From the IMG/VR virus record IMGVR_UViG_3300023179_000057, positions 1 through 64,000 of that record: DNA of 64,000 bases. One strand, 5' to 3'. Positions 536 through 60,316 of this stretch are shown here, piece after piece (position 1 is the first letter of the stretch; the number at the start of each line of letters is the position of its first letter). The translations under genes and the position numbers were made by a program. A model generated the notes under the pieces. It worked only from the letters and a program-made list of their open reading frames with translations, was not told the origin of the DNA and did not search any database. The DNA is from a virus.

Positions 536-925
536 TCAGATTTTAGGATAATGACCGCTATCTTCTAGAACAAATCCTTTTTCTCTGTCAAATAAATTAT
601 ATTCCATAGAAATGATATTAAAGTTTTCGCCCAATGCCAATAATACTTGTGGAAGATTCAATTCTCCGCAGGTATATAAATCAAACTGCATTAATCCTGG
701 ATCTTCTTCATCCCATATATGAAATGCTATATGGCTAGTCTCAATCATTACAATAGCCGTAAGTCCACGATTGCCTGGTTTGTCAACGTAAGAGGCAAAA
801 GGTCCTTTAATAATCTTCATGTCAATACGATCAACTAATTTTTCTAAGAAAGCCATTGCTTGGCCTTCAGTCTTCATAGGTTTTTCAACTCTGGCGTTGA
901 TTAATAAGTGTTTGTGAAATATCAT
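536..925 (-). CDS. speD: S-adenosylmethionine decarboxylase proenzyme family (pyruvoyl-dependent)
   Basis: HLL N-terminus, GLTAIVMIETSHIAFHIW and DLYTCG motifs; likely start MIFHK at 925 behind a GGGGG RBS. Confidence 0.85.
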   Translation of the reverse strand: MIFHKHLLINARVEKPMKTEGQAMAFLEKLVDRIDMKIIKGPFASYVDKPGNRGLTAIVMIETSHIAFHIWDEEDPGLMQFDLYTCGELNLPQVLLALGENFNIISMEYNLFDREKGFVLEDSGHYPKI

Positions 926-1047
926 ACTACCCCCATCTATATTTATAGTATACACTATTTGATAAAATTCTTCAAGTATGGTAAAATAAATATATGTACG
1001 CATTAGGACTAGAAATTCGCAGGGATCGTAGAGAAAAAAAATACTCT

Positions 1048-3708: not shown

Positions 3709-3850
3709 AATCCATTATAACCTATGTCGGGATATTAAGCAAGTATAGATATTCAACATATTGACATTATTAGACTGCTTGCAGTCGTAGTGTGTCGTAT
3801 AGTGGTTTGGTATTCTATTTTCGGCTTAACTAAGTACCCGCCAAAAAAAA

Positions 3851-3859
3851 TGATATACT
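3851..3859 (+). promoter_or_regulatory. Extended -10 promoter TGATATACT, leaderless start
   Basis: ATG at 3866 lies 6 nt downstream with no SD. Confidence 0.6.
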
Positions 3860-3865
3860 CAATAT

Positions 3866-4144
3866 ATGGCAACAGCGCATTCATTAGTCACACTTAGCAA
3901 TTCTACTGCTACTCGCTTGACGCCACCAGGCGCACACGGAGGAATGGATATCACACTCCAAAATGTTAACGCAACTGGATATATTTATATCGGTGGCGAA
4001 GGAGTCACTTCAGGATCTTACGGATTTAGAATTTTGCCAAACCATTCAATCTCTTTTGAACTAGCCTCAAATGATGCTTTATATGCTATCTCATCTGTTG
4101 ACGCTATGAATGTCGCAATGATTCAAATCAGTTTGGAGCCATAA
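3866..4144 (+). CDS. Hypothetical beta-rich (likely virion) protein
   Basis: 92 aa, LQN...YIYIGG..VT..YG..I pattern. Confidence 0.6.
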   Translation: MATAHSLVTLSNSTATRLTPPGAHGGMDITLQNVNATGYIYIGGEGVTSGSYGFRILPNHSISFELASNDALYAISSVDAMNVAMIQISLEP

Positions 4145-4589: not shown

Positions 4590-4617
4590 TCTCAAATAGT
4601 GATATAATTTGTTTATT

Positions 4618-4875
4618 ATGACTCCACAAGACTGGGCAGGATTAATTCTTACATCTCTTACAATTATAACAATTGTTGCAGGTGGAATTCGTTGGCTTGT
4701 AAAACATTATTTAAACGAACTTAAGCCGAATTCTGGCTCAAGTCTCAAAGACTCCGTTAATCGCTTGGAAGAAGATCATAAAAGAGTCGCCGACAAAGTG
4801 GATCATTTATACGAGATATTGATTGATTTTATCGCTAATCAAAATTCTAAGAAATCTAAATCTTCTAAATCTTAA
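4618..4875 (+). CDS. Holin-like/lysis-associated membrane protein
   Basis: N-terminal TM helix, ELKPNSGSSLKD.VNRLE coiled coil, basic C-terminus. Confidence 0.55.
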   Translation: MTPQDWAGLILTSLTIITIVAGGIRWLVKHYLNELKPNSGSSLKDSVNRLEEDHKRVADKVDHLYEILIDFIANQNSKKSKSSKS

Positions 4876-5080
4876 TTACTATATATAATATATATTAAAT
4901 ACTTTACTTGCTAGTTATTCTTTTTCTTTATATCTTTTAAGTATACACTTTTATACCCTGGTTTTTTACAATTTATACAAAATTGAATATAACGATTTTA
5001 TAACAATTAATTTTTATTGTCTGGTTTATAACGTTTTGTTATAATATGTCCGATTTATAATAATACAATGTTATAATTTT
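4876..5080. repeat. AT-rich non-coding region with TTATAAC direct and inverted repeats (candidate origin)
   Basis: TATAAC 4988, TTATAAC 4998 and 5026, inverted GTTATAA 5038 and 5070. Confidence 0.45.
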
Positions 5081-5083
5081 TGT

Positions 5084-5138
5084 GCTGGCACCTAGATACT
5101 ACCCCCACCCCACTGCGTCTAGGTGTCCAGTTTTATTT
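5084..5138 (+). ncRNA. Candidate small hairpin RNA with C-rich loop
   Basis: TGTTATAAT at 5069-5077; stem CTGG-CACCTAGA / TCTAGGTG-t-CCAG (5085-5130); loop ACTACCCCCACCCCACTGC; T-tract; next promoter at 5141. Confidence 0.5.
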
Positions 5139-5157
5139 AATGGTATAATCAATTATC

Positions 5158-5559
5158 ATGTGTGCTCCTACAATAGAAAAATATGGCGCATCGCCAGCAA
5201 ACATTCAATGGACCGTAGTCCGTGGAGACAGCGCAACACTAAAAATAGAGTTTTTTGAAGATGACGAAACCACCTACTGGGATACAGACGGTTGGACATT
5301 TTTATCTACAGCCTATGATCCAGCAGGAGATTTTTTTGACGAACTAACCGTAACTGATGAAGCAGGGTATGTAACAATTTCAGTTGCAGCAGATATTACG
5401 GAAAACTGGGGAAGTCAATATAAAACCGTAGTATCAGAATTGCCTTTTGACTTAAAGGTTACAATTCCTGGAGGTAGTGGAGAAGAAGACACAATTTGGA
5501 CACCAGTAGTTGGAACTATATGTGTTCTTGGAAATGTTACTCCTGGAGGAAGTCTATAA
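5158..5559 (+). CDS. BppU-like Ig-fold virion adaptor (paralog 1)
   Basis: VVRGDSATL...FDL...WT..GTI; similar to 6418 and 10046. Confidence 0.6.
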   Translation: MCAPTIEKYGASPANIQWTVVRGDSATLKIEFFEDDETTYWDTDGWTFLSTAYDPAGDFFDELTVTDEAGYVTISVAADITENWGSQYKTVVSELPFDLKVTIPGGSGEEDTIWTPVVGTICVLGNVTPGGSL

Positions 5560-6393: not shown

Positions 6394-6417
6394 TGGTATA
6401 ATGTTATAGGAGGAATA

Positions 6418-6768
6418 ATGGCATTTCCAGGAACATATAATTTTAATTACTACCGTGGTGATAGGTATGAATTTGTAATCCGTCCTAAAACTGCAAATGG
6501 TGATGCTTTTGACTTAACAGGATACAATGCAGATTTTTTTGTTGCTAATGCAAGAGGTGAAGGCAAAACTCAGTATGAAATGCAAGCAGTTGTTGATGGA
6601 TCTGCAGATACTGTAACTTGTACAATTTTGCCAGGCGCAGGAGAAGAACTTGTTGCTGGGACATATGTCTATGACGTTCAAATAGATTCTGGAGCAACAC
6701 TAGTTTATACATTGCTTACTGGAACAATAACAGTAACAGATGATATTACTGGAGCAGATGATTCATAA
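6418..6768 (+). CDS. BppU-like virion adaptor (paralog 2)
   Basis: YRGD...DLTGY...YVYDVQI...LLTGTITV; GGAGG RBS. Confidence 0.7.
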   Translation: MAFPGTYNFNYYRGDRYEFVIRPKTANGDAFDLTGYNADFFVANARGEGKTQYEMQAVVDGSADTVTCTILPGAGEELVAGTYVYDVQIDSGATLVYTLLTGTITVTDDITGADDS

Positions 6769-7343: not shown

Positions 7344-7378
7344 TATAAAAATGGTATAATCTTTAAAGAGGTGACCAA

Positions 7379-7861
7379 ATGGCTGTAGAAAATATAGGAA
7401 ACTTAGTACCAACTAAAATTCCAGCATTAATTGATGATGCTAATATTCAAGATGCTTTAAAGGCATATCATTATGGATCATATGATTTTGATACCGCTGA
7501 AACTGATCCAGCAGAACTTCTAGTTCCTTCAATGGCACACACAATCAATGATTTACAAGAACAGATAGATGACAATGCTACACTTGAAGAAGCAGCAAGA
7601 GATATTTCAAGAGCATCAACCACAGCGCCAACTGCTGCAGCCTTTACAGCATTTTCAGCAACAATTCCAGACGGATATATTTGGTTAGACAAAGACTCAT
7701 CTGCTGGTGTTGGATATTATGCTGCAACTTCTGTTTATACAGCAAGTGCTCCATCAACAAATTTAGCAAATGGACTTATATGGATTGAAAAAGGGTCAAG
7801 TCCATTAACTATGTATGTTTGGAATGCCGATACTTCTAACTGGGATGAAATAGGTGCATAA
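7379..7861 (+). CDS. Virion structural/fibre protein
   Basis: AP...G.IW.D repeats typical of fibre shafts. Confidence 0.65.
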   Translation: MAVENIGNLVPTKIPALIDDANIQDALKAYHYGSYDFDTAETDPAELLVPSMAHTINDLQEQIDDNATLEEAARDISRASTTAPTAAAFTAFSATIPDGYIWLDKDSSAGVGYYAATSVYTASAPSTNLANGLIWIEKGSSPLTMYVWNADTSNWDEIGA

Positions 7862-47838: not shown

Positions 47839-47856
47839 AGTTAGAAAAGGTGGGGT

Positions 47857-48069
47857 ATGGAAGAAAATAACACAACAAAGGTATCAGCAACACTTGGATA
47901 TACATTAAATCTAGGTAATTTTGAATCATTAAGAGTTGATCTTGGCATTACAGATTATGTTCGTCAAGGTGAAAATATTAAACAGGCACAAGATCGTGTT
48001 TATAAAACTGTTGAAACTCAATTGATTGAAAAGGTAAACGAAGCAAAGGTTCAGTTGGCTTCAAAATAA
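47857..48069 (+). CDS. Hypothetical protein
   Basis: GYTLNLGNFESLRVD. Confidence 0.7.
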   Translation: MEENNTTKVSATLGYTLNLGNFESLRVDLGITDYVRQGENIKQAQDRVYKTVETQLIEKVNEAKVQLASK

Positions 48070-58294: not shown

Positions 58295-58856
58295 CCCTAA
58301 AACTATTTGTGCAATTGATGCTAGTACTAATAGTCTTGCTTTTGCAATTTTTAATAATAATAATTTAGGAAATATTGGAAAGATTAAATTTGAAGGAAAT
58401 ACTAACTATGAAAAAGTTATGGATGCGTGTAAAAAAACAAAAGCGTTTTTTGAATATTATAATGGTTTTGAAGCAATTGTAATTGAGCATACTGTTTTTA
58501 TGAATAGCCCTAAAACTGCTGCAGATTTAGCATTAGTTCAGGGTGCACTGTTAGGAGCAGCAGGATTGACTGGAACAAAGACGATAGGAACTGTAGCACC
58601 AATTACTTGGCAAAACTATTTAGGAAATAAAAAACTAACTAAAGAAGAACAGGTTATAATTAGATCAAAGAATCCTGGTAAGTCAGATTCTTGGTACAAG
58701 ACATATGAAAGACAGATTAGAAAAGAAAGGACCATAAAGTTAATTGAAATCAACTATTGTAAAACTATTAGCGACAATGATGTTGCTGACGCTTGTGGTA
58801 TCGGTCATTGGGCTATTAATAATTGGAATAAAGCAATAAGGGAAAATATAAAATGA
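58278..58856 (+). CDS. ruvC: RuvC-like Holliday junction resolvase
   Basis: AIDAS, IVIE, D.ADA.GI. Confidence 0.75.
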   Translation: MNNNGNPKTICAIDASTNSLAFAIFNNNNLGNIGKIKFEGNTNYEKVMDACKKTKAFFEYYNGFEAIVIEHTVFMNSPKTAADLALVQGALLGAAGLTGTKTIGTVAPITWQNYLGNKKLTKEEQVIIRSKNPGKSDSWYKTYERQIRKERTIKLIEINYCKTISDNDVADACGIGHWAINNWNKAIRENIK

Positions 58857-60316
58857 AACAAGTAAAAAGTTTAACTGTTGTTGGTGGTGGAACATCTGGA
58901 TTAATTGCTGCATTAATTTTAAAATCAAGAAGTGATATAGATGTAAAATTAATTTATTCATCAAAAATTGAAATTTTAGGAGTTGGAGAAGGAACAACAG
59001 AACATTTTGGACAATTTATGTCTTTTGTTGGAATTAAACATAGTGAAATAATTAAAGAATGTGGTGCTACCTTTAAATTGGCGGTAGTTTTTGAAGATTG
59101 GGTTCCAAATAAAAAAACATATATTCATAGTGTAAATCATGGATTTTCTCATGAACTTGGACAATATTGTTCTGTTTATGCAAAACAAATATCTGAAAAT
59201 TCAGACTACATATATAGAAAAAATATAGAAAAAAATTTAGTACAAATAAATTCAACTAATATAGATAACTATTCACCAGTAAATCAATATCATTTTGATA
59301 ATTTTAAATTAAATAAATTTTTAAGAAAAAAAGCAATTGATAAAAATATAACAATTATTGATGATGACATTATTGATGTTGAATTAAATAATGAAGGATA
59401 TATAGATAATTTAATTGGATTAAAATCAAGATATAGTTCTGATTTCTATTTAGATGCAACTGGATTTAAAAGAATATTAATGAATAAATTAAATGCTAAA
59501 TGGATTTCATATAATAAATTTTTAAAAGTAAATTCTGCTATTGTATTTCCAACTGGGGATGAAGAAAATTATAATTATTTTTCATTATCAAAAGCAATGA
59601 ATTCAGGCTGGAGATTTAAAATACCAACTTGGGGTAGACATGGAAATGGGTATATTTTTGATAATAATTTTATTACGGCTGATGAAGCAAAAATAGAAAT
59701 AGAAAAAGATTTGGGTTACGAGGTTGAAATTGCAAAAACATTCAAATTTGATGCTGGAGCATTAGAAAATGTATGGATAAAAAATTGTGTTGGAATAGGG
59801 GTTTGTGGAAATTTCTTTGAACCACTTGAAGCAACATCTATTGGACTAACCATTCAACAAAGTTTTTTATTAATGCATAGAATGCAAAATTATGATGAAA
59901 TAGTTATAAAAGAATATAATAAATCATTTACCAACATGGTTGAAAATATTAGAGATTTTATTTGTTTACATTATATAACTAAAAAAAATAATACTGAATT
60001 TTGGAAAAATAATTTAAAAACGGATATTCCAGATTCTTTAAAATATAATTTAGAAAAATGGAAAAATAAACTTCCAATAAGAGAAGATTTTGTTGGAAAT
60101 TCAAACTACACAATGTTTGGACCAAATAATTTTATAACAGTTATGGCAGGACTTGATTTATTTAACAAATCTGCAATTTTAGATGAATATAATTTTTTAT
60201 CTAAGAATTTAAAAAACATAACTGAGTATATTTTATTTAAAATTACAGAAAGTGAAAACAGTGAAAATTATTTAACTCATAAACAAATTTTAAAAATAAT
60301 AAGAAATGAAGAATAA
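58853..60316 (+). CDS. Flavin-dependent (tryptophan halogenase family) enzyme
   Basis: VGGGTSG, GVGEGT, ATFK, DATGF, GWRFKIP, FEPLEATSI. Confidence 0.85.
   Translation: MKQVKSLTVVGGGTSGLIAALILKSRSDIDVKLIYSSKIEILGVGEGTTEHFGQFMSFVGIKHSEIIKECGATFKLAVVFEDWVPNKKTYIHSVNHGFSHELGQYCSVYAKQISENSDYIYRKNIEKNLVQINSTNIDNYSPVNQYHFDNFKLNKFLRKKAIDKNITIIDDDIIDVELNNEGYIDNLIGLKSRYSSDFYLDATGFKRILMNKLNAKWISYNKFLKVNSAIVFPTGDEENYNYFSLSKAMNSGWRFKIPTWGRHGNGYIFDNNFITADEAKIEIEKDLGYEVEIAKTFKFDAGALENVWIKNCVGIGVCGNFFEPLEATSIGLTIQQSFLLMHRMQNYDEIVIKEYNKSFTNMVENIRDFICLHYITKKNNTEFWKNNLKTDIPDSLKYNLEKWKNKLPIREDFVGNSNYTMFGPNNFITVMAGLDLFNKSAILDEYNFLSKNLKNITEYILFKITESENSENYLTHKQILKIIRNEE

Follow-up and report, generated by a model that had tools for sequence, protein, structure and literature searches.

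The 6C small RNA of Actinobacteria represses panD and dnaB by means of C-rich loops that pair, free of any chaperone, with G-rich ribosome-binding sites (PMC6486639). Among the Firmicutes, RsaE/RoxS and the UCCC-motif Rsa RNAs likewise have C-rich loop motifs that occlude Shine-Dalgarno sequences, and their stand-alone genes each have a promoter and end in an intrinsic terminator (PMC4152353). Short base-pairing RNAs with a private promoter and terminator are known from phages and include lambda OOP, PreS/LPR1 (bioRxiv 10.1101/2024.10.31.621285) and the c4 RNA of P1/P7, whose loop is complementary to the ribosome-binding sites of distant genes in its own phage. These three come from phages of enterobacteria and none of them has a C-run loop; OOP is moreover a cis-antisense RNA, PreS targets and activates the host dnaN, and c4 arises by processing of an operon transcript. 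To our knowledge the phage trans-acting small RNAs that are understood are few, nearly all of them from phages of enterobacteria and Vibrio, and we know of no published case from phages that infect the abundant Actinobacteria of fresh water; a literature search for C-loop sRNAs of actinophages found no description.

The locus reported here lies in a window of 64,000 nt, the first part of the 91,654-bp record IMGVR_UViG_3300023179_000057 (33.6% G+C). This is an uncultured freshwater phage with an actinobacterial host, because it encodes a WhiB protein and because its portal protein is 45% identical to the portals of Streptomyces BE-cluster phages (Stanwilliamsviridae). Parts of the region occur in 20 public runs, most of them lake or other freshwater metagenome DNA libraries. 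The window also contains a tryptophan-halogenase-like gene (58853-60316; phrog_2928, E 1e-94).

Immediately ahead of a virion-module gene that starts at 5158 there is a hairpin with a C-rich loop, and we consider it reasonably probable that it represents a self-contained small RNA gene of ~48-55 nt, the loop of which would pair with G-rich ribosome-binding sites, that of gene 47857 being the conserved target. With 6C (B11, RF01066) this RNA would share the host phylum and, as predicted here, an exposed C-rich hairpin loop directed against G-rich ribosome-binding sites; short G-C-rich helices suffice in 6C without Hfq or ProQ, and dnaB is a validated 6C target while the predicted target of the phage RNA heads a helicase/primase run. 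However, 6C consists of several hairpins and has two conserved C loops (L2 and L3), whereas the phage RNA is a single hairpin of ~50 nt in which two or three C runs are interrupted by A; the latter is also phage-encoded and AT-rich, and its predicted target is a phage gene. The 6C covariance model RF01066 (gathering score 47 bits) had no match in the window at gathering; searches of 5000-5200 at E <= 10 and of the entire 91.6-kb record likewise gave no match. Membership in 6C was thus rejected, given the lack of a model match, one hairpin instead of two C loops, and a phage record as opposed to an actinobacterial chromosome. By analogy, the mechanism would most likely be akin to that of the actinobacterial 6C-type C-loop sRNAs, without the RNA belonging to 6C. 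The Rsa-type RNAs of Firmicutes differ in being chromosomal, longer and multi-hairpin, they have no sequence relation to the phage RNA, and none was matched by Rfam here.

Anatomy and conservation of the hairpin element

The features of the element, together with its predicted and candidate partners, are given in Table 1. The stem begins 7 nt past the -10 box, and transcription of the small RNA is predicted to start near G5084. The hairpin folds at -20.5 kcal/mol, compared with -9.4 +/- 2.3 for shuffled sequences (z -4.94), and none of 200 shuffles was as stable. The original prediction had described the element as having its own extended -10, a GC-rich 12-bp stem, a C-rich loop of ~19 nt, a U-tract and no ORF, and as being followed by a gene with a promoter of its own. 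This description agrees with our findings, since TGTTATAAT is present with conserved spacing in relatives, the stem has both the fold stability given above and 12 covarying pairs, the U tract is seen in most relatives, and TGGTATAAT precedes the next ATG; only the length of the loop, which is indeed C-rich, had to be corrected to 19-21 nt. A GTG frame that overlaps the element (5082-5258) was ruled out as a coding gene, the C runs of the loop differing by 1-3 bases among relatives and thereby breaking the frame.

Table 1. Coordinates of the hairpin element, its predicted target and its candidate partners (window positions unless a record is named)
Feature	Position	Strand	Remarks
Second upstream extended -10-like box, TGTTATAAT	5037..5045	+	kept in many relatives, not all; absent in L020
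Extended -10 promoter of the small RNA, TGTTATAAT	5069..5077	+	TAnAnT box 6-8 nt before the stem in 54/54 aligned relatives
Hairpin body	5084..5131	+	arms 5085-5096 / 5118-5130, bulged U5126
Loop segment AUACUACCCCCA	5096..5107	+	complement of the speD ribosome-binding site and start
Apical loop UACUACCCCCACCCCACUGCG	5097..5117	+	conserved C-rich element, predicted to serve in recognition
Loop segment CCCCACC	5103..5109	+	complement of the gene 47857 ribosome-binding site
U tract, intrinsic terminator tail (UUUUAUUU; DNA TTTTATTT)	5131..5138	+	in most relatives; weak in a few, e.g. L038
Promoter TGGTATAAT and ATG of the next (virion-module) gene	5141..5160	+	box 5141-5149, ATG 5158
speD, S-adenosylmethionine decarboxylase family (AdoMet_dc)	536..925	-	
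speD ribosome-binding site and AU of AUG, UGGGGGUAGUAU	924..935	-	candidate lineage-specific second target
GGUGGGG, predicted conserved target site	47849..47855	+	1 nt before ATG 47857; unstructured in the local fold
70-aa gene, phrog_5189	47857..48069	+	heads the run 47857 / 48071 / DnaB-like helicase 48372 / DnaG primase 49549
Ribosome-binding sites with a G5-6 run	18748, 56779; G000 75900, 81345, 77416(-), 934(-)		

The second upstream box could possibly be a tandem promoter. In the same spacer (5018-5060) the sequence TGTC(T/C)G(G/A)TTTATAA occurs twice, 29 nt apart, each copy overlapping a TGTTATAAT-type box, and the pair may be operator-like, ahead of the small RNA promoter. An Rfam/Infernal search matched no known family, with nothing in the whole window at gathering score and only chance-level rows at E <= 10 around the element in 5000-5200 (mir-3912, sbrA and PCA3_2). 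A tRNA/tmRNA scan found neither, and a nucleotide search of the phage collection returned a single match of 81 nt, to an unannotated record.

The TGGTATAAT box stands only 8 nt before ATG 5158, an arrangement kept in nearly all of the ~80 loci, and the message of this gene is therefore probably leaderless. Genes of the virion block (5141-5160, 4600-4621, 6394-6420 and 7352-7381) have TG(N)TATAAT upstream and a start codon 8-18 nt after the box, the distance being 8 nt at gene 5158 and 10 nt at gene 4619, which suggests that the virion-block mRNAs are leaderless or nearly so and are transcribed by the host RNA polymerase. The window has 17 copies of the sequence TGNTATAAT versus 7.4 expected, and most of them precede + strand genes. 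Extended -10 promoters and leaderless starts are compatible with Actinobacteria.

To follow the element across relatives, the protein encoded at 5158-5559 was used as an anchor; at least 104 relatives are present in IMG/VR, and 80 loci were fetched. The hairpin lies directly upstream of the gene 5158 homologue in 77 of these. In two of the remaining three (L020 and L021) it is found ~800 nt further up, an inserted gene with its own promoter standing in between, and the RNA cassette retains its -10 box and its tail despite the insertion; in L020 the upstream flank has been replaced as well, the cassette again being retained. Using 32 variants to build a covariance model, we collected 54 non-identical copies from related IMG/VR phage contigs, and each of the five full relatives has exactly one copy. 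Among the 54 copies, all 12 stem pairs have changed on both sides, and 95.8% of the stem cells are paired, versus 79.5% in shuffles (0 of 500 reach the observed value) and 20-45% with slid partners. About 35 stem cells are G-U wobbles, which would appear as A-C mismatches on the opposite strand, so that the + strand RNA is the conserved molecule. While the stem sequence turns over completely, the loop retains C3-7 A C3-6 (A C3) A Y U G as its pattern; its C runs range from 4 to 7 with single-base differences, and a more distant RNA class has the loop GUCUCU(U/C)CAUACCCACC. The hairpin is a member of an RNA family that has no match in Rfam. Its private promoter, covarying stem, conserved C-rich loop and terminator support its reading as a stand-alone small RNA gene, and it looks, at the level of sequence, like an independent transcription unit with the covarying structure and the conserved single-stranded seed of a C-rich-seed base-pairing sRNA.

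The RNA model R1 had no match in Streptomyces phage Jay2Jay, which is cultured and carries the target gene, and gave nothing significant in G014, G015, G018, G022, G024, G031, G032, G034 and G035; the G022 contig ends at the expected RNA site and is therefore uninformative as to absence. In the near-complete G014 (L234/L235), a genome without the hairpin RNA, AAAGUCCCCCCCUCCCCCC followed by AAAGUCCCCACAAACCC lies ~150-200 nt upstream of the gene 5158 homologue, and this stretch may be a separate C-rich element, or else a remnant.

An element situated at the exact border before the virion module, and having the anatomy of a terminator, could also act in cis, either as a terminator or an insulator that separates the virion genes from the small-gene block upstream, or as a terminated leader resembling lambda PR'-tR', with a protein-bound loop that controls late read-through. 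The slot before gene 5158 can hold a simple terminator, since the hairpin found at the same place in G018 (L318) is plain, with an A/U loop and a U tract but no -10 box and no C-rich loop. In addition, a 1468-nt RNA-library contig covers 4690-5647 of a relative without interruption, and so runs through the element, although it gives no start, end or strand information; the three RNA libraries among the public runs consist of contigs only. A terminator, however, needs neither a promoter 7 nt upstream nor a conserved loop of 19-21 nt, and here the next gene has its own promoter past the U tract and a leaderless start. The cassette also stays intact where a gene has been inserted between the RNA and the virion gene, and a cis-acting role would leave unexplained why the loop co-varies with a ribosome-binding site 43 kb away, as described below. 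We thus regard such a role as unlikely. The more specific candidate of a plain intrinsic terminator with a loop of 3-8 nt was rejected, as the stem and U tract are present but the loop of 19-21 nt is conserved and a promoter lies directly upstream; a consensus terminator scan did not list the hairpin site.

As an alternative, the original prediction had proposed a primer RNA for adjacent origin-like repeats. The upstream spacer of 200 nt is AT-rich and has short direct and inverted repeats, which would suit a DNA-level element or the primer RNA of a nearby replication origin. These repeats are nonetheless weak, amounting to two 14-nt copies and AT-rich palindromes, and in L020 the spacer is replaced while the cassette persists. 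Furthermore, the G-U pairs indicate a + strand RNA, the replication genes are 43 kb off, and the GC skew turns at ~3800-4000, away from the hairpin element, so that an origin function appears extremely improbable.

The ribosome-binding site of gene 47857

The complementarity of the loop segment CCCCACC to GGTGGGG before gene 47857, which the original prediction had mentioned beside its main proposal, is exact. An unbiased target scan covered six full genomes (this phage and five relatives), in which every open frame of 45 codons or more was taken from a simple, untrained open-frame list. The score of a frame was that of the best ungapped helix its start region (-22 to +6, up to six starts) could form with the loop of its own genome. 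Frames were then ranked genome by genome, and Fisher's method served to combine the ranks across 185 orthologue families. The 47857 family obtained a combined P of 6.7e-8 over the 185 families and six genomes, a value that is overstated because the six genomes share descent, the independent pairing classes numbering ~5-6; the next best family was that of speD, at 3e-3. Sliding duplex energies were noisy owing to large interior loops and were dropped in favour of the ungapped helix scores; by duplex energy the 47857 family ranks 8/344, 5/326, 1/427, 2/310, 6/450 and 10/500 in the six genomes.

In all 12 genomes that hold both partners (beyond the full genomes, seven further records, G033 among them, have both), the loop and the gene 47857 site can form a short helix of 7-10 bp, by about six different pairing solutions. 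Written as loop / site, these are CCCCACC / GGUGGGG in this phage, G006 and G007; UACCCCACC / GGUGGGGUA in G001; ACCCCACCCA / UGGGUGGGGU in G003; CCACUGCC / GGCAGUGG in G002; UUCAUACCC / GGGUAUGAA in G004 and G012, with 8 bp in G005 and G028; ACCCCUCUG / UGGAGGGGU in G020; and GUCUCUC / GGGAGAC in G033. When loops and sites were exchanged, C-run loops scored 13 on GGGUAUGAA sites versus 20-22 for the cognate loop, while CAUACCCACC-type loops on non-cognate GGUGGGG sites scored 17-22 versus 20-27; the specificity is one-directional only, because the CCCACC core is common to all loops. In G014 (99% complete) and G032 (87% complete), where the RNA is not detectable, the 47857 homologue has ordinary GGAGG or AGGAG sites. 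Complementarity to orthologous start regions, which is expected of the functional class, is conserved in the 47857 family, and on these comparisons the ribosome-binding site of gene 47857 is most likely the conserved, co-varying target of the RNA.

The 70-aa gene has orthologues of 58-68% identity in six of the six full genomes, as well as homologues with the same synteny in Streptomyces BE-cluster phages (e.g. Jay2Jay); more than 585 contigs encode it. It is followed by a 102-aa gene, the DnaB-like helicase and the DnaG primase, stops and starts abutting or overlapping, with an SSB further on. Both in the lake phages and in the Streptomyces BE-cluster phages, the 70-aa and 102-aa (phrog_11101) proteins always precede the DnaB-like helicase, and they may be helicase partners or loaders. 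The structure model of the 70-aa protein (pLDDT 84) consists of a beta hairpin and a long helix; it had no match in a PDB search at E <= 0.001, and Pfam, run on the target gene and its neighbours, gave nothing for the three small genes.

The speD match and other candidate partners

The original prediction had taken speD as the defining target of a trans-acting phage sRNA for G-rich ribosome-binding sites. The match itself is exact: ATACTACCCCCA occurs exactly twice in the window, in the loop (5096-5107) and at 924-935, so that the RNA is complementary over 12 nt to the minus-strand speD mRNA, covering GGGGG and the AU of the speD AUG. The first base of the 12-mer, A5096, belongs to the closing pair of the stem. 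This is the longest loop complement in the 91.6-kb genome, it falls on a start region, and a 12-nt complement anywhere was reached in 5 of 200 Markov-simulated genomes (P ~0.025). The RNA could therefore be thought to exist chiefly for the repression of speD, by 12-nt pairing with its ribosome-binding site and start codon, and a number of observations agree with this: the site is unstructured, a match of 11-12 nt is kept in the nearest relatives L083 and L087, a G4-5 run is found at the speD site in 16 of 16 relatives with a C5-6 loop, and the L115-L118 group has another match of 8 nt (AGAGAGCA / UGCUCUCU). However, this phage has G runs among its ordinary ribosome-binding sites, and in other relatives the match has decayed to a 6-nt G run. 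The extension beyond that run is not co-conserved, the 5' part of the loop (AUACUA, AUUCUA, UUCUAA) drifting independently of the speD spacer (UAGUAU, AAGUAU, AAAUAU, AAACAU, AGCUAU). Three of the five other full genomes (G001-G003) yielded no speD orthologue and keep the loop unchanged; the site ranks only 29/450 in G004 and 134/500 in G005, and many speD-carrying phages lack an RNA of this kind within 7 kb. It is thus unlikely that speD is the main reason for this RNA. The broader part of the original prediction, pairing of the loop with G-rich ribosome-binding sites, stands, while speD as its main target does not; speD may instead be a recently acquired, lineage-specific extra target for this phage and those closest to it.

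The genome-wide number of loop matches, which the original prediction had proposed to count, is at chance level, with 27 complements of at least 8 nt in the genome versus 26.5 in shuffles. About eight genes have a G5-6 run as their ribosome-binding site, which is unusual at 34% G+C, and they could possibly form a wider regulon of the C-rich loop with many weak partners. Outside the window, the whiB gene (G000 77054-77227) contains AGUGGGGUG at 77205-77213, a 9-nt complement of the loop segment CACCCCACU, within the stretch that codes for the WGVWGG motif of the phage WhiB. This G-rich WGVWGG-coding stretch is common to WhiB-family genes, those of hosts included, and WhiB-family genes are possible extra partners of the loop.

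The last observation bears on a further explanation, namely that the RNA is directed at the host, mimicking host 6C-type C-rich loops and reprogramming host mRNAs with G-rich sites (e.g. those of replication or division), the phage matches being secondary. Besides the 9-nt complement in whiB, the actinobacterial host indicated by WhiB and the portal is in line with it, and precedents come from 6C, whose overexpression arrests growth via pairing of C loops with G-rich sites including that of dnaB (PMC6486639), and from a lambda-encoded sRNA that regulates the host dnaN (bioRxiv 10.1101/2024.10.31.621285). Against it, the RNA has no similarity to the 6C model, and the loop changes by phage lineage together with the phage site, where a fixed host target would predict otherwise; we give a chiefly host-directed role little credence.

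Proposed mode of action and its meaning for actinophages

The small RNA is, on this sequence evidence, probably a translation regulator. Under our preferred reading as a base-pairing RNA that acts on gene 47857, the host RNA polymerase would start at the extended -10 ~7 nt before the stem and end at the hairpin and U tract. The stem would only display the loop, whose 19-21 C-rich nucleotides are the predicted working part; by pairing with G-rich phage ribosome-binding sites, chaperone-free by analogy with 6C, the loop would block 30S binding, with translational repression as the presumed direction of the effect. The primary target would be the ribosome-binding site of the 70-aa gene 47857, and because stops and starts in the replication run abut or overlap, repression could spread downstream and reach the helicase genes by translational coupling. 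The speD start region, with its 11-12 nt in this phage and the closest relatives, would perhaps be a newly gained second target.

A more speculative extension, which we put forward tentatively and think rather unlikely, is a 6C analogue with two jobs, one being to tune the phage replication-leader gene (and the helicase by coupling) and the other to bind host mRNAs with G-rich sites, including those of replication and of the WhiB family. If this were true, uncultured lake actinophages would possess an RNA-level switch over both genomes, in which loop and target co-evolve per lineage and new targets, e.g. speD, are gained by short seed extensions.

The RNA is small and widespread (54 variants), its stem covariation is clear, and its loop co-varies with the predicted target, so that the two form a pair open to compensatory mutation. 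It would also provide annotators with a new RNA family model. If the pairing were confirmed, the speD match would illustrate how such RNAs capture targets, the chaperone-free mechanism by which C loops of 6C meet G-rich sites would be extended to viruses, and the replication module of lytic actinophages would be found to be under RNA control.
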